DNA of 64,000 nucleotides, taken from Girardia tigrina. Taxonomy: Eukaryota. The translations under genes were made by a program, and so were the position numbers. Of the stretch, positions 3,246-38,545 are shown one piece after another. Position 1 is the first letter of the stretch. Every line of letters starts with the position of its first letter. The notes beneath the pieces are model-generated. The model did not search any database and had not been told where the DNA came from. It saw nothing but the letters and a program-made list of their open reading frames with translations. The stretch spans positions 1-64,000 of the forward strand of contig MQRK01233587.1 in the NCBI GenBank assembly GCA_001938485.1, read 5' to 3'.

Positions 3246-4064
3246 TTAAGTGAAATTATGATTTTTAATCTTGAATCAAATATTATCGAAGATAATGTCA
3301 ATGCTACTGAAAACCTGATAAATAACACAAACCAATAGCCTTCAATACTTACAAACAAGGAAAGTAATCTTGTAAATCATCTTGTTGAAAGTAAGATTAA
3401 TCCTCCAGCAGGTTAGTTGCAAATTCTGCCAATTATAATTCGATAAATAATTAATAAAAATATAAATATAGAAACTGTCATTAAAATTTTTATAATTAAT
3501 GAATCAAATAATAATAAATTTAAATATTGCTTAAATTAAATATTTTTGTATTTTCAATTCGTAAATTGTATTTCAAAAATGTAGACATGTAAAACAAATG
3601 AAACGTATAAATAGTTAAAATAATTCCAGATAATGAAATATTTTTTTTAAAAAATTGAAATATTGATAATAAATAAAACGTTAAACTCTTTTTTGTTAAT
3701 TTGGTTAAAATAAATTTTGCTGATTTTATACTGATTTTAAATTAAATTTTATCAAATAATAGAATGTTAATCTATAAAATTAATGAAAAAAATTCAATTT
3801 TTAAATCTCGTTTTTAATAAATAGCTTATCAGTATTTATAATTCCATATTTTTATGTATAATAAGTCTGGTCAAAAGAAAACGAAAGATCCTCAAGAAAA
3901 ATTGTTTAAATAATTGTTATTTGTGTTATTAATAAATTTTTGGTGTTAATGAATTATAATATTGATCAAGAACCCAACATACCTGGTATGCTAAAATTGG
4001 TAATTATTATCCTCCTTGCATTTATTTTCTACTTCAAAGAAAAAATTTAGGAACGTATAACAGA

Positions 4065-4742
4065 ATGCTCGGAATTTTGAAGCAACTTCTTCCAACTCTA
4101 TCACCACAAAAAGTTCTGGTTGATTTTGAGAAAGCTTGTTTATCAGAAATTCATATTGCTTTTCCCGGTGCCGAAGGTAAGAGATGTTTTTTTCATCTCT
4201 GTCAAAATATAATCAGAAAGAAAAATAATGTTGGTTTAAAAGTGGATTATGAAACAAATGGTAAAATTAAATTATTATTGAAGTCTCTTCCATCTCTATC
4301 ATTTGTTCCAGTCAGTGATGTCAAAAAAAATTATGGTCTTTTTGTAAGTACGTTCCCTGATGATGAAATATACCAAGAAGTACTGGATTACTTCTTTTTA
4401 AATTATATTGAAGGTCCTCGTGGTGGAGCAGCACAATTTCCTATCACATTATGGAATCATTATGATGCAGCTGCTGATGGATCCCCTAAAACAAATTATT
4501 GCGAAGGGTTTCTTAATTCATTGAACTCTTTATTTCAATATAGTCATCCTAGCGTTTGGAAGTTATTTAATGGACTTAAGAAGAATATTGTTTGCTAAAG
4601 ATTACTCCTTAGTAAAGTGAAGTCAGGTCTTATATTTTCATATAATTTGATTTTTTATAGTGTTGTTTTGTCCGTGTGTCGTTTTGTCCTTGTGTCGTTT
4701 TGTCCTGTGTTGTTTTGTCCAATGCTGTTCTGTTCGTTCACG
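4065..4742 (+). mobile_element. Mutator (MULE) transposase C-terminal fragment plus subterminal tandem repeats
   Basis: VLVDFEKA...FP...RCFFHLCQ (CxxH motif), WNHY, TNYCEGF, HPSVW; about five copies of TGTGTCGTTTTGTCC at 4660-4740. Confidence 0.85.
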
Positions 4743-14559: not shown

Positions 14560-16400
14560 AAAGAGGCATCAGATATTTGGATCCAAGATGTGAATGTGAC
14601 ACTGCGTTTCGCTATATGATTGACAGGAATGTCGCAGTTGTCATCAACAATATGCACGGTTTTAACTTGCAGAAGTTGACCGTCCTATAAGTGCCATTGT
14701 AATTGATCGTTGCAGTATTGTTGTCCGGATGGAACTGCAAGACTCGATGAGGGCCAGTGTATCGAGTTTAGAGCGATATCGGGTACTCTGGGATCAACCA
14801 GACGAACTTTGCTGAGAGCAATTCGCGGGGTACGTGCATTCTGTACGCACCCTGTTTTGGTGGTGAGGTGTCCAAATTCTTGAAATGCTGCCGAGCCAAT
14901 TCCAACAATCAGAAGAAAAGTTCATTCACTATGGAAGTGTTTGAACCAAACAGCATTTGCGACGGAGAAGTTCCTTGGCGACTGCTTGGAATGTTTCTCC
15001 ACCCCAGTAGAATAAATGACAGCTGTTTTATCCAGTTATGATTGATGGACATGGTTCTAGGACAAGGAATTCTTCAATGTCCAGTGAAATCTTTCAACGA
15101 GACTGTTCGATCGTAAATGAAATGCTGTCATTTTGATGCACTGAGTGCCGAGTCGCTGTAATAGATTGGTAAACAGCGTGGACTCAAATTGGCGAGCTTG
15201 GTCCGTGATTATACGCTTCGGCACACCAAATCTGGTTATCCAATTGTTGACAAATATCTCAACAATTGTTTCGGTGGTTATGTTCCTCATCGGAAACGCC
15301 TCTGGCCAACGAGAGTTCCAATCAATGATCTTCAGGAGATAAGTATAGCCATTACATGGTGGAAGCGGACCAACGATATCCATATGTATGATATCGAAAC
15401 GACTGCCTATCGGAAAGCTGAGAGTTTACGGCTTTGTATGCCTTGTCACTTTGTTGGCTTGGCCCTGGAGACAAGCTGTGCTCCATAACTTGACATCGCG
15501 GCGAATGAACGGCCACACAACTTTGGTGTGCAAAAGCTCATATGTTGCTTTGGAGCCGGAGTGAGCTATGGAATGGACTGCCTTGAAAGCATCCACACGA
15601 AGGTGTTCGTCTAGAACTGGACGAGGACAGCCTGCGATGGAGGTGTAGTAGAAAATATGTCTGCGTGTAGTGGGTTTCTCCTTGAAAAGAGACAGGTCCT
15701 TATCTGACGGTGGATTGACTTCCAAAGCTTCCTGGGAAAGATATGGCTGGAACTCCAATGCTGCCAGTTATAGCCGAGAGATGCGATCCGCTACAACATT
15801 GTCGGCGCGAGAAATGAATCTGACTTCAATATCAAACTGAGACAGGTAACTGATGTGTCTTTGTTTGCGTGGTGATGGATTCTTCATGTGGAAAATCTGT
15901 AGTAGAGGCTTGTGGTCAGTGTACACCGTTGAGGAACGTCCGATGAGCGTGTACTCAAAGTACTTCACAGACAAGAACAATCCGAGTAGCTCTCGATCAA
16001 AGGTAGAATACCTTATCTGAGTCGAAGAAAGCTTGTGCGAGTAGAATTCAAAAGGCTCTGGATTGTTGTCTCGCACTTGCATAAGTACAGCTCCGATTGC
16101 AATATTCGATGCGTTCGTTGTCAATGTAAGTGGAAGCGAGTTATCTGGATATCGTAACGATGTCATTGATATGATATCCTGCTTGATCAGCACAAATGCG
16201 GAATTTGCTTCCTGGGACCACGTCACACGCTTCTTCTTGGGTCCAGATGAGATGTCTGTGAGCGCCGCCAATGTACAGGAGAGAATCTGCCAGAATCTAA
16301 TGCAATAATTTACCATTCCCAAAAAGCTGCATATCGCAGTGACTGTTTCTGGTTTTGGGAAGTCCCTGGTGGCTTTGGTGCGCTTTTCTAGTGGACTGAT
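14560..16400 (-). mobile_element. Ty3/Gypsy pol relic (RT C-terminus, RNase H, integrase)
   Basis: SFLGMVNY, LTTNASNIAIGAVL, YSTFDRELL, TDHKPL, NVVADRISR, H-H-C-C zinc region, MDIVGPLP, IITDQARQFES, VERFH, GPHRV. Confidence 0.92.
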
Positions 16401-16861
16401 AGTAGTAGGAAAAAGGTACAAGACAGCCCCAAACAACATTTTATGCTTTTTTCCTACACCACTAAAATCCTTCTAATTCCTTCCTTTTTTTATAAAAAAG
16501 GATGAAATCCTATAATTATTTATCAATAAATTTGAGTTTGGAAAAAGCACATTTTTTATAAAAAGATCGCTTTTAAACGGTCTCATTCAGTTTAGACTTC
16601 TATATTAATGTGTAATGTATAATGTATAATGTAGAAATGTGAAACTATTAAATGCGATATATAAAAATGTTAACATAGTTCGAAATTCCTTATCTAGAAA
16701 TGGGGAAAATATATTATGATAAATCTGTTACTAAAAATAGTTTTGTTACTAAAAATAGAGTATTCTATAGAAGACTTTTTGATATATATCGTGAAATACG
16801 TATTAGTTTTTGATTTTACAAATTGTTTTATTTTTACAATTTGTTTTGTATTATATTAAAA

Positions 16862-18131
16862 ATGAATAAGCATTTATGTGAAACATGTTTAAAATATATT
16901 TCTAAATCTAACAAATCACACCATGAAAAAACTCAAATACATGCTAAAAATCTATCTCAAAAACAAGGTGGAGATCTTCAAACAACTTCATCAAAATTAC
17001 CAGACTTTCCATGGTCAAAATATAAAGGTGAACATCATCTGCCAAAGCATTCACATGCAGGCTCAGGAACACGTTTAGATATTCGATTAGATGAAATGAT
17101 AAACCAAAACCAGGAGAAGAACCTATAAATCGTATTGATGAAGCAGCTCTAAAACATAATATTGCTTACAGAGATGAAGATATTCATTCAAGACGAAAAG
17201 CAGATATTGATATAATTCAAAATTTAAATGAAATTAATAAACCAACACTTGGAGAAAGGATTGGAAGAACAATTTTAAAAACTGCAATGAAAGGAAAAAA
17301 TATGTTTGGCGAAGCTAATGAATTGCTAGCTCAAGAATTACATAAAGAATACAGAAAACCTAAAATATTTTTAAAAGTTAAAGTTTTTAATAAAGATGAT
17401 ATTTGGGGAGTAGATTTAGTTGAAATGAAAAAAGAAGAAGATTATAAATATATTTAACAGTTATAGATTTATATACAAAATATACATGGGCGTTTTCTTT
17501 AAAAAACAAAACAGGAAATACTATTAAAACTGCTTTTGAAAACCTATTTGAAAGTGACCAAAGAATTCCTAAAAAACTATATGTTCATCATGGAAGTGAA
17601 TTTTATAATAAAACATTTTTAGACTTTTTAAAACTAAAGCAGATAGAAATTTATTCAACTTTTAATCAACCTGATGACAGAAGTCAAGCACCATCTCATA
17701 ATCCGGTTATAAAAAGATTTAATAGAACTTTAAAAACATTTATGTGGAAAGAATTTACAATTCAAGAAAATCAGAAATGGTTAAAAATATTACCTAAACT
17801 ATTAAATTATTATAATCAAAAAGTTCGTAGAACAATAGGAGTTTCACCTGAAGAAGCAAATGATAATCCTGAAATAATAAAAGATAAAATAACAGATAAT
17901 GAAAATGAAAATATAAAAGATATTCAAAAATTTAATATTGGTTATCATGTTAGAATTTTTAAATGAAAAAATAAATTTGAAAAAGGTTTTACTCATAAAT
18001 GATCTAAAGAAGTATTTGTAATAAGTGAAGTTCATAAAACAAAACCTATAGTTTATTCAATTATCGATCTAAATGGTGAAGTAATAAAAGGAAGATTTTA
18101 TACAAATGAATTGCAAAAATCATCTTTCTAA
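16862..18131 (+). pseudogene. Zn finger + parvovirus-type phospholipase A2 + Maverick integrase (frameshifts and late stops)
   Basis: CETC..HEKTQIH; EHHLPKHSHAGSGTRL..RL..PINRIDEAALKHNIAY..RRKAD; then in frame LAQELHK..DIWGVDL..TVIDLYTKY..GSEFYN..KRFNRTLK..YN...RTIGVSP..GRFYTNELQK. Confidence 0.88.
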
Positions 18132-18389: not shown

Positions 18390-19669
18390 ACATCTTTCCA
18401 TTCTTGATCATGATTTTACAATGTTTTTCTTCGAACTTTATTTATTTTAAAGCTTTCGCTTTAAAGTTACTTGTTTTTGAAATATGAACTGTGATATCAC
18501 ATCCATTGACAGATAGTTTTTCATCTTGAGCAGAAACATAAAAACAGAATATTGAATACAGATTTTTAAAATCACGAATATTTAATGGAGCTGCTTCAAC
18601 TTGAAATTCTGTACACATTTTCAGATAAGCAAGATATGGTTACATTTGATAATTCTTTGCTGAATCAAATTCCATTTTATTGATTGGATAATAAGAGTTA
18701 TTAATTTATACTCTTAAACTTGTGATTTGATTAGCACCATCTTTTGGTATAAATAATGAATTATTTTTCTCTATTGAAGTAGTTAAATCTTTGAAAGCTA
18801 TTAAAACATATCTTGGTCTAGAATTGGTTAAACTCACTTTCCAACTTACATTTGTACTTCCAGCTGTAAGGTCATTTGTTGTACTATTTCTATTTAGGAA
18901 ATTTACTGAAATTGGTTTATCTTTATTTAATCTTTCTAAAAAAGCAACTTCACTTTTCGGATTAACTGTTAATTCAGGAATCCATAACTCTAATGATTTG
19001 ATTTCAACTTTTCCTGTTGGTGCTACTGGAGCTGTTTCAGTTACACCTGTTCCATATAAAATATCCGCATCATTTAGTTTTCTATTTAAAATAATATTTA
19101 TCGATAATAGAAATATAACTCTATGATAATTTTCTAAGAATACAAACAATTTATTTAACGGGAATCTTCCTTCTGATTGATGTGGTTTATCAGCTTTTAA
19201 TTTTTCTTCGTCATTGTATAATTCTTTTCTTGTTTTAAAACCATTACTTCCCGTAGTTCCTTTTCCTACATCTGGAATTCATCCAATAGATTCTCCTTTT
19301 GAAGATGCTCCATTTAACATTACAAAATTTAACATACCTGAAAACTCACCACAGTTATTTATATTTTCAACTTCTGATGAACCATGTTGCATCCTCATGT
19401 TTTCAAGCATTCTTGGAAAGAAGTTATTTTTGAGTGTAACATTTAAATTAGCAACAAATCCAGATAACTTAAGTTTGTAATAAAAGAATGCGTCACCTAA
19501 ATTCAAAGGATTACTTGTTTGATTTATTTGAAATTTGATATCGCCATTTTTATTTAAATTAGTTGAAGAATCGACACTAGCGGAAACTCTTAAATAATCT
19601 TCTTTTTTTTAAATTATGATCAAAATATGTTGTTTTATCTAATTTGAACAATTTCCATTCTTCTTCCAT
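18370..19669 (-). pseudogene. Polinton/adintovirus major capsid protein (double jelly-roll, hexon-like), disrupted
   Basis: NLNKNGDIKFQI, VTLKNNFF, ENINNCGEFSGML, PLNKLFVFLENYHRVI, LELWIP, RPRYVLIAF, INNSYYP, DFKNLYSIFCFYVSAQDE follow the motif order of Polinton MCP. Confidence 0.8.
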
Positions 19670-26419: not shown

Positions 26420-27886
26420 TTTGGAGATATATGAAAGAAAGAGAGAGATATAGGTAGATGTAAACAGAGGTTGTGGTAGAAAAAAACTTCAAGTAAAAAT
26501 GCCAGAATGAGATAAAAAGAAAATAATCGAAAAATATTGAAAATGTTTATTGCCATTAAAAAGATTCGAATAATCCACCGGAAATAAGACTTATTTACAT
26601 GGTTAAAACAAAATTAATTTAGTTAATTCTTTTTTTTAAATTAATTTCCGACATTTTTTTACGTTCTAATGTTGTCGATTCACTCCATTTTTTAAAATTA
26701 AATATCGTATTTTTTGCACATTTTTTTGTTAGTTTTGATAAAATTAAATTAGTTGATTAATAATTAATTTAGTTAAAATTAAATTAATAGTTAAATTAAT
26801 AAATTGCGGTCACTACAATAAACATCTTTTGTAGTGTGTTTTTTGCATTCTACTTCGTCTTTTTTGTATTTAAATCACTCTTTTTAAATTAAAATTCTTT
26901 AATTTTGCATTCAAATTACCCCCCACCTTGGAATTTCAAATTTAAACATAAAACCTTGTAGATGCATTTATGGTTTTGACAAAGAAAACTCAAATTTTAT
27001 CGGTCCCCAACGTTTCATAGTTTGATTATTAACTTTCTCAAGAGTTCAATAATCTAATGAGCTACAAGGTCATATTCTACGGAACTTATTTTGTTTAGAG
27101 ACATTATAACAAAATACACCAATATTTGATACAAAACGTTTACTCTTTCTTAAGTTAAAGTCCACAACATTCAGTCCGTTGGTCTATTATGTCAAAAAGT
27201 ATTTATCATAAAACAACAAAATTTGGCATGCAACTTAAGAATATGACACGGGCGTTACCAAAATTTTTCGTAGAAATATACAGGGTATTAAAAAATTTAT
27301 GGCCAAAAATGTAGTTTTTTGAAATGGAATTGTTATAATATATTTAATTTTTAGAACGTACTTAATAAATGCTATTTAAAAATATCATATTTTATACAGG
27401 TTGATCCAAAAGTAAGGGGACGACTAAATATTTCGAAAACTAATGTTCATAGAAAAAACTTTTCTACAAAAGTTTTAAGAAATTAAATGTTATTTATAAA
27501 ATTTATAAAACTCTCAAAGAATATTAATTCAATTTTTTATTAAGATATGTTTATATTTGTGTAAATTGTTTAAAGGTATGTGAATGTAGATGCGTCGACG
27601 TTTTGCAAAAAGTAGTTTGCAATCTTATAATAAAAATCAATGTTTTACTCTTCGGGAACTAACAAACTACGGGCATCACGTAAAGAAAAAGTCAGTTTTT
27701 AAGAGCAACCTGAATGTCGAACTCCGACGACTATTGACAAAAATATGTAGCACACTCCAGAACTCCTCCAACGAATACTTTTATGCAGGTAATGATCTTG
27801 TGGAACTTGGACTTGTGTCAGTAACAGAAAAATATGCCATGCAATCGTTAGTGCAAGCATTTGACATCTCACTTTGTTTGACATCG

Positions 27887-29620
27887 TCCTTTAACTTCTT
27901 TTATAGAATATTGCAGATTTAAATAATCTGCTCCTAAAAGCCTGTCAACCTGATTCTGATTTACGAAATTTCCAAACGGAATGTCCTTCAAGTGTAGCCA
28001 TTTGCATTTTATCTTTTCCAAATCACACACTTTTAAGTCTCTCGTTACGTCATCTACGACTAATAGACTCAGTCTTTGTCTTAACGATCCATTTGTGGAA
28101 TTCAGTTCAACATTTACTCTATCAGCTTTTACTGATTTGGTACCATTCAAAACTCGAATTTTCATTTCTTTGGTTTCTCCGACTAAACCCAACTTGTCAG
28201 CCACATTTTTATTAATGAAAGAATTTGTGCTAGCGTCGTCAAGTAATAGGTTCACTCTGAGTCGATTTACTTTATTTATTAGATAAACGGGAATGGTTCT
28301 CAAAGACACAGAGAATTCATTTTCCTCTATGAGATCAGTGAAAAATGTCCCACCACTCAGAATCTGATTAAACTCTTCTTGTGGTGTTTTGCCTTTTCGC
28401 TCTTCTTTACTTTCCGTGTGTTTATTTTGATCTGAACTTAAAACATCTTTTTTCGAGTGTAGGTTTCTACAGTTGGTACGAATATACAATTGCCGGATTC
28501 GAAATATTTGCATTTGATTGGAATTTCTTCCTTTGTTAAATCGTGTATGTATCTGCATGCATTTCCTCTTCTACAAATTCCTTTTTGAAAATCCCAACAT
28601 AGTGTCCTTCCAAATTCTCTTTCTGGTTGAGCTGCCCTTTTTTCTTTCTTTTGAAAAAAATCTTTTCCACTACATATTTCTCGAATATCTTTCTTTCGAT
28701 CTTTGGGATTAAATACGCCGATACCATGAACGGCTTCCACATCGGTCCGCTTTATTTCTACTTCATTTATCAGCCAATCGTTTAAAACTGATAAATTTTG
28801 AGGTTTTCCTTCTGAAAGCTGAGTTCTCTCCCAGCGCTCGACTAAAACTTCAGGTAATTTTGCCAACAAAGTAATGTAGAGTAATCATCCTTCAATCTCC
28901 ACTTCCTTGTTATTATTCTCTGATCTGGAAATAATAGCTTCCAACAATCCTACGAAACATTCTAGGTCCTTTAAATTATTTGCCCTCACTGGAAAGAACT
29001 CATTTATTTCTCTCATTTAATTGGTGTATTGCCTCTAAGTACCTCCATATCGTTTGTCCAATTTGGCTAATATCGTTTTGTAGGATTCTTTGGTTATTTC
29101 GATGTTTTTGATCAATGCTTTTGGTTCGCCAACAAGGCATTGATCCAACATTATTTGCTTCGCAATATCTGTCATCTTTGAGGAATTGACACATGCCTCG
29201 AAAGTTCGCTTCCATTTTTCATACTCACCCACATTTCCAAAAAAAATGGGTAAGATGACCGGTTGGAATTTTATCTTCCACCATCTGAACTCGTTCCTCT
29301 TCTTTGATCTGTTTATGATTGATGTTGAATCTCTGCTTTGCAGCTGCCAGCACCTCTTCGTTTTTATCTTCTAATTTTGTCAATTCCTTGTCGATTATTT
29401 GGCTGTACTCCTTTTTCTTTAACCGTTTGGTATTAATTTCGATTGTTTCGAAATCCTTCAGCACTTCAATATAGCATTCGTTATACGAAACCATCGTTCT
29501 ATTGAGTTCTTCAGTTGATATTTCCTCATGTCCGAGCTTACTTCTTAATTGTAATAATTTATCCTTTGAACTCCTTCGGCAAAGCATTTTTCTGTCTAAT
29601 TCATCTTCATCCATTTCCAT
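27887..29620 (-). mobile_element. BEL/Pao LTR retrotransposon gag-protease relic (frameshifted; RT, RNase H and integrase absent)
   Basis: DUF1759-type LPIFFGNVGEYEKWKRTF..K..L...LVGEP..Y...L.KRYGG; KLPEVLVERW; Pao protease LRTIPV..VNLLLDDASTNSFINKNVADKLGL..VDRLLGADY. Confidence 0.88.
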
Positions 29621-29848
29621 GCCTCCTTTCAGGCCAAGCAGAAGATAAATTGTAGCATTCTTAGTTATATTGCTCTCCTTTATTGACATTTCATCTCTTA
29701 AAACTTTCCCAGTGAACCATAATTTTTGCAGGGTACTTAGAGTTCCCTCCTTGTTTTCAATTTTCGTTTTGATGTGCTTTATTGTTTCTCGATTCTTCAC
29801 ATCCGAGGCAATTGTTTTGCCAGAAAGTGTTTTTATGAATATCTGCAA
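29621..29848 (-). CDS. Ubiquitin-like domain (76 aa) inside ORF 29225..30370
   Basis: LQIFIKTLSGKTI...KEG...GK.L.D...NI.K..T..L.LGLKGG is colinear and ungapped against ubiquitin; 35/76 identities by manual count. Confidence 0.93.
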
Positions 29849-29911
29849 ATCTGTTTCTTTTCCTTCAAACCTTTTCTTTTCATCCTCATCTTCCAGTAAA
29901 TCGAGATCTTT

Positions 29912-30801
29912 ACTGCCAATCGACTTCAATTCCAACACAGATGATTCTTTCAATTCACAATTCACCTTGCCATTATCACTCAAATTGTCATCGGTCACTT
30001 TAATCTCCACAAACTTCTGTCTCTGCTCGTTTACTCGAATCCTAATCATCGACACAGACCCGTTGTCCGACGTCCGATTCGACTTAATAATCTCAATCTT
30101 CGGTTTATTATCATTGATATCGTCCACATTAATGACGACCTCGGTGTCACTCAACACATCACTCGCTGTCGATTTATTCGCGTCAACTGCCGATAATTTA
30201 AAAGAAAATGTCCCGGTAGTTTTTGCCGACAATTTCTTATTCAAAATAATATCTCCATTATCTGGATCGATTTTAAGGAACACGGAAATTTGCCGATTGA
30301 TTCCTCGTGCCAATTCGTATTTCGTTTTGTTATATCTCGATCCGTCGGTGTCCACCGCGACGACTCTCATGACGACATTATTGTCGGGATGACTCTCAAG
30401 AATCTTTTTCTCGTATTTCGGGACTACGGATCGTTATCGTTCTGATCATCAACGTTGATGATGATGAGCGAGTGGATCAAGCAGTCTTTATTGTCGTCAC
30501 ATGCAAACAAGAACGCCTCGTTCACCTTCTTGATCTCGTAATTGATCGGTCTCGTCAAAACCACACTCAAATTCTCCAATGCCGAACTATCCAAAATGAA
30601 AGTGTTCGTCGTCTCACGGAAACTGTATCGCTGAAGGCGACTCGCCGCACCAACATCAACATCCAATACGCCGCCGACATCGCGAATTCCCCAACCAATC
30701 AGATCCGCCAACACAGAATCAATCCTCTTCACACCAAATTCATATTTTTTCATTTTCAATGTGACAAGTAACCAAGTTCTGCTACCAAATTTTCTGTTCA
30801 T
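29912..30801 (-). pseudogene. Protocadherin-type extracellular cadherin repeats (partial; one frameshift near 30424)
   Basis: Calcium-binding motifs LDVDVG, INYE, VDDQNDNDP, AVDTDG, AVDA, VDDINDNKP, VTDD..NGKVNCEL; no intron seen. Confidence 0.88.
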
Positions 30802-32016
30802 TTTTTGCAAATTTTAATTAATCGAAATGAATGAATTCAGTTCACTTTTTTTAATTTCAAGCAATCGAGTCACGTACACAATTTTTAATCTTTATTTCCA
30901 ATATTAAAATTCATTTTTCAAGTAAATAATAAATAATAATTAAATTGGTCAATTTAAACAAATTTGACCTTGAACCCAATTTTAATAATAATTTTTAAAT
31001 GTTTTTACAATTATAACTTGACAATTAAAATTAAATGTTTTTTATCAGATTTGTAATTAATTGGTTCATTTTGAATCTTCCAATTGTTATTGTCCGTATT
31101 TTGGAAGTTATTGTAATTTAATTACCTGAAATTATCCCATGGATAATGAAAATTACCAAGGGATAAACTTAAAAATTCAAAATAAAAATAATAACAATAA
31201 TAATTAGTAGTAATTACTTACCGCTGAAATACATATTGCATCAGTGTTATTTATCTCCTCGAAATTGTACTTAGAATAATTATTTCTTTGTAAAAAGAAA
31301 AGGTCGTCTCACCTAATTATTCGCAAAAAACTGAAGTTTACTCAAAACTTGACTGACAATTCCTTTTATAGCAAGAATTATATCTGGCGATTATTTTTTT
31401 ATTTTAGTTACATTACGTTATTTATTCCATTATGTTTGTTAAATTTGTTAGTCAATATTTTTCTGTGAATTTATTCGCGGCAATATATTTGTTTTCATTT
31501 ACTGATTCCTTCGCTGTTAATTTCTCTTTATAAAAGTAATCTCAGGTTCTGGAACTTTATGTTACTCTTACAAGAACAATTCTCAAATTATTCAAATATC
31601 TATTCTTTATTTTAATTTAAATTTTGTTTTTTTATTTATTTAAATTATTTTTTTAATTTATTTTCTTTTAATTATTTTATTATAACATATAAAATATAAA
31701 AGCGCAAGCAATATGCAATCAAAGGGTCAGGTATTACCATTCCATAAAGTCGATTGTAATTTCGATTTGAATTTGTCTTGAAAGGATGATTATCAATAAT
31801 GATAATACAAAAAGAAATATAATAATTATTTGAATTTAAATTCCGAAAAATATAATTTACTCTGAATGGCAAGACACAAAATCAATCAAAACAGCAGTGG
31901 CGATATTTGAATTTAAAATTAACCAACAGTTGAATAATAATGGCAGATCATATAAAATAGAAATTAAATTTTTAGCTTAGAATTGCAACTCACATAAAAA
32001 ATCATTTAATATATAG

Positions 32017-34989: not shown

Positions 34990-37900
34990 TTACAGCGGTG
35001 TCAGAACTAGTTCGCTCGATTGAAACCAAGTCTCTACGAAACTGCCACAATACTTCGATGCGGCGGACATGTTGTTTCGACAAGTTGAGGCCGTTTTCAA
35101 ATTGTCCAAGACCTCCAGCGAAACGACGAAATTCCTTCACTACATTGCCAGCCTTCCACCATACATTCTCATGGAGTTTCAAGACTACTTCAATAACGAA
35201 TCGGCAACACCGTACACGGATCTCCAACAAGCAATAATCCGGAGTCGCAAACAACCATAATCATTTTGATGCGCCTTTCTCTGCTAACAACATTGGCGAC
35301 TGACGTCCGTCGGAGCACCTAAGCATTCTACAGCGTCATCGTGCACAACTCGGACCGACTTCCGAGGACGATCAAATTCTATGGAACACCTTCCTGTGGG
35401 CACTTCCAATTGAAATCCAGAAACAACTCATCGCGAATGGGAGCCAAACCTTATCACACCTAACTTACTCGCAGATGATCTACTCAGGGTTAAACAAACC
35501 AACTGTATAAATGTCGCGGAAACAAATCCTTTCCTAGCCCAAATTGAGTAACTCACGGATGAAATAAATCAAATCAAAAGGAGAATCGATAAAAGCGAAA
35601 ACCAAAACCAGACCGTCATATGCTATTATCATCGCAAATTCGGTCACAAAGCACAGAAATGTCTCAAACCATACAACTTGAACGAACACAAATCTTTGGG
35701 AAAAGTCAAAGATTCGGCGTGAAACCGGTAAGGCTGAATCACACAAAACCACCGGATCAGGTATTCTCAATTTTTACTGTTCCAGCCACCACAAACAACA
35801 AGATACTTCACTTTCTTGTCAATACGGGCACCGACGTAAGCATCCTACCCTACAGTTTATTCCAACCCAGTGGCGGATCGGAAACTCAGAAGCTCGTGAC
35901 AGCAAATGGGCAGGATATCCATACCTATGGGAGACATACGATCGAATTCCAGTTCACAGGGATACAAAAAAATTCAAGTGGAGCTTTATACTGGCCGACG
36001 TTCTGAGACAGATTTTAGGATCAAACTTCCTTGCTCACGAGGACATCACTGTCGACCGCAAAAGGAAAGAAATCTCAACAAGAAACCACACTATCTCGGG
36101 ATCAGCAAAGACATGCCACAGCGTCACGCCCTCAGCAACCGAGGTCACACCCGCATTGAGAATAGAAACAAACGGTCCTGCAATAGCCCAGAAACCGAGA
36201 AGAATTAGGAATCACATTCTCAACACGATCCGCGAGGAATTCGATCGCCTATTAGCAGAAGGCACAATTAGAAGAAGCACGAGCTCCTGGTCATCTTATT
36301 TACCGTTCTTGCGGTAACTACAGGCTTTTAAATTCTGTAACACGGCCGGATAGCTACACTCTGCCCAGAATATCAGACATTCTCGATCGAATATCCGGGA
36401 AAACAGTCTTTTCAACGCTAGATCTAAGAAAAGCGTTTCACCAAATTCCGATTCATGAGACCGACATCCACAAGACGGCCGCAACGACACCCTTCGGGCT
36501 ATTTGAATATACCACCATGCTCTTTGGCTTACGCAATGCATCTCAGATGTTTCAAAGATACATGGATGCTTTGCTTCACGGCGGTGAAGCCTTCGCAGCC
36601 TGCTACATTGATGACATCATCATATTTTCGGACTCGCTCGAGCAACATGAACAACATCTGTCACATATAATTAGCCTACTGCAACAGAAATCATTAAAAA
36701 TAAACGAAGATTAATGCAAATTCAGAGCAACCGAAGTCCAATTCATTGGCTTTATGATTTCCAAGAGTGGGTTCAAACCCATCCAGAAACGAATTTACGA
36801 CATCGCAAGCCTCAAAGAACCAGGCGATACAAAAGCGCTCCGAAGGTTCCTGGGAGCAGCTGTATTTTATCCATGGATGATTCCAAAATTTTACAAAACA
36901 ATGGCTCCACTCCATGATCTGCTCAATAAATCGAACAGAAACAAGAAAATCACACTGAATGCCTCACAAAAACAAGCGTTTTACTCAATCAAACAGAAGC
37001 TCAACGAAATCACCAATATGGAACCATTCGATCATAAAAAGGATCTAATTCTTTGCACTGATGCCTCAAAGACAACCGTGGGAGCAAACCTTAACGATGA
37101 AATCAATGGGCAACTTGCATCGATAGCATTCTTTTCATGAAAGCTAACGGTAGCCGAACAAAAATTTTCAACCCTTGACTGAGAGCTGCTCGCTATATAT
37201 CTGGCCACCAAGAAGTTCAAACATTATCTAGAAGGTTATAAGATTCTTTATCTTTAAGATTCTAACAGATCACAAGCCTCTCATATACATTCAGTCCATG
37301 AATGAACCATCCAACAGACAATGGAGGCACTAGAAATCCTTAATCAATTCTCGTTTAAGCTGCAATACATAAAGGGCTCTGAGAATATTGTTGCAGATTT
37401 CCTCTCCGAGAACCAGGAAGATCTGATCGAAATAACGGAGATATCCAAATCTGATCTCATCAACGAGCAAGATAAAGAGAAAAATTATCTTTTCTCAGAC
37501 AATGAATTAAAAGTCAGAACAGAGGGAGGAATTCTAATAGACGTAGCCAATGGAAAGAAACAAGTCATTTTATCAAGCAAGTTTCGCCATTCCGAGTTTC
37601 AGCATTCAGTTTCAGTTTCCGGTACTAACAAAACCATTGATCTAATCCGAGCCCGCTATGTTTGGAAAAGGATGAAAGCAGACATCCGAAAATGGAACCG
37701 AGAATGTCACAAGTGTCAATCAACAAAAATAACCAGACAAACCAAATCGAAACTTGGCAAACTTCAGGACAGAGGCAGATTCAAAGTACTACACATGGAC
37801 ATTATTGGCCCACTGCCGATGGCAGAAGGTAAACGCTATTTATTGATATTCACTGACAGGCACTCCTCATGGCCCGAAGCGGTTCCTATCAATGATATCA

Positions 37901-38545
37901 CATCCACCGCCGTTTGCAAAGCACTCACCAACTCGTAGATCTCTCGCTTTGAACCACCAGAAATCATCATTACTGATCAGGGCAGACAATTTCTCTCGAG
38001 CCAATTCAAAACCACATGTGAGAGATTCGGAATCGAACACAGGCAAACCACCGCATATCACCCTCAGTGTCAATGGGAAGATTGAGTGAATATACCGCTC
38101 TCTTAAAAATGCACTCAGAGCACACTGTGAAACATATGAACAGACGTTGGTGCGCGATCTACCGATCGTTCTACTCGGATTAAGAAACGCCACTATCCCT
38201 TGTTCAATGGTCTCTCCCGCACAACTCCTCTACGGTTCCTCCACCAGACTTCCAGGAGAGATCATCACAGACAACGAGAACCAGGAACTCTACACAGACG
38301 ACCACGTCACACGAGCTATAACCGAATTCGGTATTCCAATCGTAAACAAGCAGTTGGCCCGCAAGATCTTTCTACCACAGACTCTCAAAGACTGCAAACA
38401 CGTATGGATCAAGACCGATAACTCTTGCTCGCTGAAGCCATCATACGATGAACCTTATGAGGTACTCAGCAGATCATAAGACTTGAAAACCTTTGACCTA
38501 AAGATCGATGGTTGCACATAGAAGGTCTCAATAGACAGATTAAAG
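34990..38545 (+). mobile_element. Ty3/Gypsy (CsRn1-like) gag-pol internal region with many stops and frameshifts; no LTRs recognised
   Basis: Gag FRQVEAVF..TKF..LP, RPSE, CYYHRKFGHKAQKC; protease FLVNTGTDVS; RT LDLRKAFHQIP, FGLRNA, YIDD; RNase H TDAS, TDHKPL; integrase HMDIIGPLP, ITDQGRQF. Confidence 0.93.

Follow-up and report, generated by a model that had tools for sequence, protein, structure and literature searches.

A ubiquitin-like domain ending in Gly-Gly directly precedes Gag in BEL/Pao retrotransposons of Girardia tigrina: a candidate processing signal for host deubiquitinases

The window analysed here, a stretch of 64,000 nucleotides of Girardia tigrina DNA (contig MQRK01233587.1), contains a copy, broken and truncated at its 3' end, of a non-autonomous BEL/Pao family present in high copy number, with the layout LTR, cadherin fragment, ubiquitin-like domain (Ubl), Gag, CCCH fingers and protease. 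The features of this copy are as follows:

30790..31082, minus strand: 5' LTR of about 290 bp, 70-77% match to the LTRs of other copies (L044, L045, L036)
30799..30801, minus strand: likely start codon in the LTR end; the frame (MNRKFGSRTW...) crosses the primer site and enters the cadherin piece
30770..30787, minus strand: primer-binding site TGGTAGCAGA..., presumably of the initiator-Met tRNA type and shared by families A, D, E3, G and H2
29950..30768, minus strand: cadherin-repeat leader, a protocadherin-like ectodomain piece (Pfam Cadherin, E 4e-9)
29849..29947, minus strand: acidic linker before the Ubl
29621..29848, minus strand: ubiquitin-like domain with the tail LLLGLKGG (ubiquitin-family sequence matches, predicted beta-grasp fold)
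29274..29620, minus strand: helical N-terminal region of Gag, beginning MEMDEDE (helix at 81-105 in the structural model)
28888..29271, minus strand: Gag core, DUF1759, BEL/Pao type (Pfam DUF1759, E 6e-9)
28480..28599, minus strand: CCCH-type zinc fingers in tandem, at the nucleocapsid position (Pfam zf-CCCH, E 6e-8)
27883..28300, minus strand: aspartic protease with an LLDDAS motif (Pfam Asp_protease_2, E 5e-7)

The window copy is dead. Its cadherin leader, in which no signal peptide is seen, is shifted in frame near 30427 and has lost about 400 bp internally near 30745, its Gag core is entered by a frameshift near 29270 and interrupted by stops near 29036, 29018 and 28886, and its second CCCH finger is broken. 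Homology to other copies stops at 27883, leaving a 5' LTR and no 3' LTR. The intact frame described in the first-pass annotation holds for 30433-29228, the copy being broken elsewhere. RT, RNase H/Peptidase_A17 and integrase are absent from the window copy, which does not show the PR-RT-RH-IN order of BEL/Pao elements; LTRs with a short target duplication and a tRNA primer site, a DUF1759 Gag and an aspartic protease are all found in the family, and a K..LxxxR motif in the N-terminal part of Gag aligns with its counterpart in other families. CCHC zinc knuckles are a feature of BEL/Pao Gag. They are not found here, types A and C having CCCH fingers (window 28599-28480, minus strand; L172, L157), and they do occur in type D (L171) and in an ordinary BEL protein, P0123; types A and C are not each other's closest relatives on the Gag tree. 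The protease motif (window about 28235, minus strand) is LLDDAS in family A and its RT-bearing relatives, and LLDDGS in type C and P0123.

A plus-strand open frame of 247 codons (29649-30392) runs antisense over the cadherin-Ubl region, also in several other copies; it has no Pfam match and was rejected as a shadow frame. Other decayed mobile elements lie in the window at 35000-37940 (plus strand), 15768-17966, 3966-4598 (plus strand) and 18706-19278 (minus strand), their contents including gypsy-type RT and integrase, RNase H and integrase pieces, a MULE transposase and a double jelly-roll-like capsid domain.

The window family (family A) is represented by 413 DNA candidates and 2626 protein candidates in the 1.43-Gb genome, of which 40 and 150, respectively, were scored. 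Twenty close copies of the window element were fetched with 7-10 kb. Four of them (L031, L036, L043 and L044) have paired LTRs, 92-94% alike and spaced 3-5 kb apart in three cases and about 6 kb in one, with a target duplication of 5 bp in L044 and one matching at 4 of 5 bp in L031. Between copies (these four and the window), LTRs are ~70% alike and internal regions about 92%; the LTR ends in L031 and L044 are TG...AA, not TG...CA. None of the 20 close copies contains RT or RNase H, and a piece of integrase was found in one. The protease of family copies is followed by a tail of about 250 residues with no Pfam match. Relatives with the same Gag and Ubl tail (L082-L085, L088 and L089), which belong to subfamily A2, have remains of a BEL-type RT, Peptidase_A17 and integrase. 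Since RT and RNase H are missing from all 20 close copies and present in these relatives, the subfamily of the window copy, A1, is a non-autonomous BEL derivative, and it is likely to have been moved in trans by its RT-bearing relatives. The cadherin leader is carried by 33/38 A1 copies and by none of the 29 A2 copies. The family is no assembly artefact, as contigs from other public sequencing runs (under other species labels, or from a biofilm metagenome) cover the Ubl-Gag junction, with records of X4, X8 and X10 bridging it.

The Ubl of the window copy lies within an open frame of 402 residues, which begins in the cadherin repeats and passes through the acidic linker and the Ubl into the helical N-terminus of Gag. 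As had been counted by hand in the first-pass annotation, its 76 residues (29848-29621, minus strand) align without gaps to ubiquitin and are 46% identical to it (35/76, with a sequence from a polyubiquitin locus of the same genome as reference); it matches ubiquitin in Pfam (E 3e-16) and in the PDB (E 1e-17). Residue 1 is Leu (CTG), and the codon after the terminal GG is ATG (GG/MEMDEDE). The altered surface patch (I44W, H68Y, V70L, R72G) and the Met next to GG reported earlier were both recovered, and R42K, R74K and I36T are also present, such that the canonical combination of the I44/L8/V70 patch with R42, R72 and R74 is not found in this domain. Lysines 6, 11, 27, 29, 33, 48 and 63 are present along with G75 and G76. 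This set of seven lysines is nevertheless a property of the window copy and not a family trait, because only 58% of 67 family copies retain K48 (61% have K42), and H68Y is nearly private (2/67 or 3%).

An AlphaFold2 model of the Ubl-Gag junction, built from an 18-row alignment, predicts a beta-grasp for the window Ubl, with a pLDDT of about 90 for residues 1-70. Residues 75-77, the GG among them, fall in an exposed, flexible linker modelled with low confidence, and there is a helix at residues 81-105, after the Ubl. The domain has in common with ubiquitin-fusion precursors a beta-grasp of ~76 residues, an in-frame C-terminal diglycine and a following residue other than Pro. It probably derives from ubiquitin (46%, ungapped) and not from FUBI, a comparison made by eye in the latter case, and shares the tail LKGG with host FUBI, whose junction in FUBI-eS30 reads VSLKGG/KVHG.

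To assess how the junction evolves within the family, the 102 loci covering it were reduced to 67 non-redundant copies. GG is intact in 50/66 readable copies, with G75 kept in 86% and G76 in 88%, to be compared with 82-94% for Gly codons of the Gag core. One pair excepted, a shared GG loss does not go with closer than average relationship between copies, and the existence of GG-less sublineages was rejected on that basis. The losses represent decay after insertion, and, because GG decays like other Gly codons, its conservation among family copies, which had been put forward as a check, is uninformative either way; the comparison across junction types (see below) gives GG in 102/128 records.

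With the A1/A2 boundary set by hand at 91.5% identity and the ratios resting on small differences, net dN/dS between A1 and A2 is 0.12 for the N-terminal part of Gag, 0.09 for the Gag core, 0.12 for the CCCH fingers, 0.25 for the protease and 0.72 for the Ubl. Within A1, pN/pS is near neutral for the cadherin leader (0.78) and the linker (0.89), and for the Ubl it is 0.60 within A1 and 0.58 within A2; no Ubl ratio exceeds 1. Residues 35-62 of the Ubl differ between A1 and A2, the tail HLLLxLKGG being unchanged. In two copies the N-terminal half of the Ubl has been replaced, one of these retaining nothing but the tail HLLLGLKGG behind a piece of gypsy RT. The long residence under selection suggested earlier thus fits the lineage (0.09-0.12 in Gag), applies only loosely to the body of the Ubl and does not extend to the dead copy of the window.

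A second Ubl-Gag junction was met by chance in one locus. The ubiquitin family PF00240 has 3445 candidates genome-wide, and loci for a survey of the junction were chosen by the Gag family PF03564, in order to avoid picking on ubiquitin. The sample comprised 70 loci (the top 30, and 40 of ranks 31-150 with adequate flank length), of which 41, including four near-duplicates, have an upstream Ubl detectable by tblastn. Nine of the remaining 29 had short flanks or N gaps. The other 20, read by eye, divide into eight with a Ubl or its tail ending in GG, one ending in SG, one with a divergent Ubl-like piece ending in EG and 10 that lose homology inside Gag. The EG piece (L250; ...AKLRIREG before ADEDFEE, upstream of Gag) is very divergent and resembles, we believe, invertebrate FUBI. 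In four derivatives of type C (L158, L160, L161 and L163) the Gag N-terminus runs into long coiled-coil repeats and not into a Gag core.

A pattern search of all loci yielded 14 junction types in 132 records, four of which were dropped as spurious, and GG is present in 102 of the other 128. All types have their Ubl in frame with Gag. The commonest pair of Gly codons differs between types, in five synonymous forms (GGA-GGC, GGT-GGG, GGA-GGA, GGT-GGA and GGA-GGG). In the 18-row alignment G75 does not vary and G76 hardly does, alongside the core residues, and positions 42, 44, 68, 70, 72 and 74 vary (K, N, C, R, Q or L at residue 74 across types). The linker after GG varies in length among families. 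Even the divergent Ubl of type G (30-34% identity) keeps GG in 11/12 cases. Six junction types rest on one copy each (four decayed ones beyond H/H2), and types I and K lack GG by one base. The residue after GG is Met in seven types, Ser in six and Ala in one, and never Pro. As the Ser types have no start codon after GG, Gag cannot start at that position in them, and these types fall in three separate Gag clades (in a tree of 28 rows whose deep branches are mostly unsettled). The Gag cores of other types are 26-39% identical to that of family A, which puts them no nearer to it than a BEL Gag from another organism, at 31%. The recurrence of GG followed by Met or Ser across the 14 types, the synonymous changes of the Gly codons and the Ser starts devoid of Met all argue for the original suggestion of a candidate cleavable leader.

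No ubiquitin-Gag junction in BEL/Pao elements was found described in the literature searched, which consisted largely of open-access papers. Protein database searches gave no instance of the same design in other species, these being weak negatives, partly swamped by polyubiquitins; one search returned a single BEL protein, P0123, which has no Ubl.

The ubiquitin modules themselves appear to have been replaced over time. Their DNA identity to a host polyubiquitin locus (L099) is highest in type C (89-92%), followed by E1 (84-86%), full-length B (79-82%), F (about 74%) and A (58-60%), and the young modules share its high GC3. Types E1 and E2 are intermingled on the Gag tree, yet they have ubiquitins of 91-96% and 66-67%, respectively. 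Because some modules are close to the host in DNA while their Gag cores diverge, and because of the interleaving of E1 and E2, it is likely that host ubiquitin was recaptured repeatedly at the junction. A single origin followed by very unequal rates of change could formally accommodate the protein sequences, but fails to explain the silent-site likeness to host polyubiquitin. The host ubiquitin units (L096-L125) comprise a GC3-rich group (0.62-0.70) as opposed to many AT-rich di-ubiquitin genes (0.17-0.32), and it is the GC-rich group that the young modules match.

The leaders in front of the Ubl also differ by type: a cadherin fragment in A1, and a piece of the Hsp90 middle domain in B, C and F (48 loci, duplicates included). 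In family A this cargo comes after the primer site. One-off pieces include a coiled coil in two loci and a gypsy RT joined to a Ubl tail in one. As a possible donor of the cadherin leader, the best of 30 host cadherin loci compared (of 150 places scored) is 30% identical to it, with no match in DNA. Fragments of a PRMT and of RNA polymerase subunit N, intronless-looking and in frame with Ub-Gag, occur in L162 and L158; being single-locus cases located before the apparent primer site, they were rejected as family cargo.

The reading that we consider probable, from the sequence patterns described above, is that the Ubl between a variable leader and Gag is a processing signal, cut after Gly-Gly by host deubiquitinases to free Gag. 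Translation would start upstream (in family A at the ATG in the LTR end) and proceed through leader and Ubl; a host protease would then cut at GG, giving Gag a fixed N-terminus whatever leader precedes it. As this cut would free Gag, pieces of host mRNA (cadherin, Hsp90, fresh ubiquitin) could be taken up in frame at little cost, after which selection would keep only the Ubl fold and tail while the surface drifts. An ATG is found at a constant offset before the primer site in 8/10 family-A copies with a visible site, in association with two LTR end sequences. An unbroken frame from this ATG to Gag is not seen in any single copy, and GG, counted from the primer site, is found in each of the three frames, indels making this frame comparison uninformative. 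Family A also has its own Met after GG, which counts against this reading.

Any fusion of ubiquitin to a protein X is known to be cut unless X begins with Pro. From such established knowledge of ubiquitin fusions, cleavage at GG is most likely for types with an LRLRGG tail; we are less sure of it for the divergent Ubl of the window family. Tail residues decide which USP can act, and with R42, I44, R72 and R74 lost the common enzymes may not cut this domain: R72/R74 are contacted by USP36, and USP42 needs an RxRGG tail, according to the available part of the source (PMC10611586). The accessible text of another report has the divergent FUBI cut by USP36, with the diglycine required (PMC8354635). 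Since the window Ubl is old and divergent, a tolerant enzyme would be needed, such as the one that processes host FUBI-eS30.

The same substitutions (I44W, R42K, R72G, R74K) may instead mean that the junction is cleavable in near-canonical families, and that in the window family the Ubl either remains on Gag uncut, serving as a folded spacer or an aid to solubility, or is taken off by the protease of the element itself. The Ubl net dN/dS of 0.72, the turnover of residues 35-62 between A1 and A2 and the two copies with a replaced N-terminal half are all compatible with such a spacer, which we nonetheless regard as unlikely: it is the tail that stayed the same while the body changed, host FUBI has the same LKGG ending, and type G, equally divergent, has retained its GG almost throughout. 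More doubtful still is the possibility that the leader and the Ubl belong to a 5' region of captured RNA that is not translated, with Gag starting at the Met after GG and the Ubl a relic. Ser or Ala follows GG in seven of the 14 types, even if Met does so in the other seven, and an untranslated relic would account neither for a Ubl in frame with Gag in every type nor for Gly codons that changed only synonymously between types. The near-neutral ratios of cadherin and linker within A1 and the lack of a single copy with an unbroken frame from the LTR ATG are what this scenario would predict, but the Ubl ratios of 0.60 and 0.58, the retention of fold-core residues and an ATG offset conserved across two LTR types are not.

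The first-pass annotation had also proposed that the freed variant could act as a decoy. A ubiquitin that weakens host defence, as a decoy or by poisoning chains, is suggested by the seven lysines and GG of the window copy, and its fast surface change could be diversifying selection; with lysines and I44 patch not conserved across the family (K48 and K42 each missing from roughly four copies in ten, H68Y in two copies), and no Ubl ratio above 1, this claim is not supported. Moreover, the same junction is built with ubiquitins ranging from near-host to 30% variants, all of these identities occurring with working lineages. We consider the decoy the least probable of the three alternatives, and a very remote one.

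Processing after Gly-Gly by host enzymes, the reading preferred here, has parallels in known systems. Host ubiquitin has been inserted in the polyprotein of cytopathic pestiviruses (BVDV Osloss, CP1 and CP Rit) in several independent acquisitions, in frame as here and sometimes with a preceding piece of host mRNA (S27a), according to the portions of the reports available (PMC8310069, PMC13517609). In these excerpts, host hydrolases give the downstream protein its authentic N-terminus, whereas the GG cut is only predicted here, and the insertions are sporadic, dead-end events of an RNA virus in which a nearly exact ubiquitin precedes NS3. The BEL elements described here, in contrast, carry the domain before Gag as a fixed, old retrotransposon trait, with ubiquitin from 97% to 30% identity. 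Ub-eL40, Ub-eS31 and FUBI-eS30, as presented in the accessible text (PMC8354635, PMC10611586), are precursors in which a Ubl ending in GG adjoins a protein, as in the BEL layout; the ribosomal-protein fusions begin with the Ubl, however, and the BEL Ubl is internal, behind a leader, in a mobile element. On this analogy the BEL Ubl-Gag would work like the pestivirus insertions and the Ub/FUBI precursors, while belonging to neither.

Among mobile elements, the giant gypsy-like Burro/GYPSM1 elements of planarians have likewise captured host-like domains, including an Ubi2/SUMO-like motif (PMC6431247, available part). Burro is a gypsy element with an N-terminal Gag and the Ubl-like motif far inside, between MATH and BCL2, and no GG junction is described in the accessible portion of that source (PMC6431247). 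P0123, an ordinary member of BEL/Pao (Belpaoviridae), has a DUF1759 Gag, aspartic protease, RT, Peptidase_A17/RNase H, integrase and DUF5641 in that order, all shared by relatives of the window element; it lacks a Ubl, has CCHC knuckles and starts with Met, unlike the window family with its leader-Ubl, its CCCH fingers and, in A1, no RT. The starting Met of P0123 lies about 150 residues before DUF1759, near the position of GG here, on a short contig that may have had an upstream part. The TR-GAG elements of plants are, like the window family, short LTR elements with Gag and without pol; no Ubl or cadherin is mentioned in the available text (PMC4350172), and the family described here is BEL-derived and keeps its protease.

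The broadest form of the proposal is that a whole BEL/Pao lineage replaced the start codon of Gag by a host-cleaved ubiquitin, that its 5' end became a free-exchange cassette for host mRNA, refreshed by recapture of ubiquitin, and that its assembly depends on host deubiquitinases even at 30-46% identity, for and against which we find the case evenly balanced. Processing of captured ubiquitin by host proteases, a sporadic accident in pestiviruses, would here be a stable, lineage-wide retrotransposon design. It would explain how in-frame host coding pieces can stand beside Gag with no damage to the capsid, and would open a path to gene capture and exon shuffling. In addition, the families offer natural Ubl-GG substrates graded from 97% to 30% identity, with tails LRGG, LCGG, LQGG, LKGG and LLGG, on which one can test directly how much divergence of ubiquitin is compatible with cutting, and which enzymes do the cutting.
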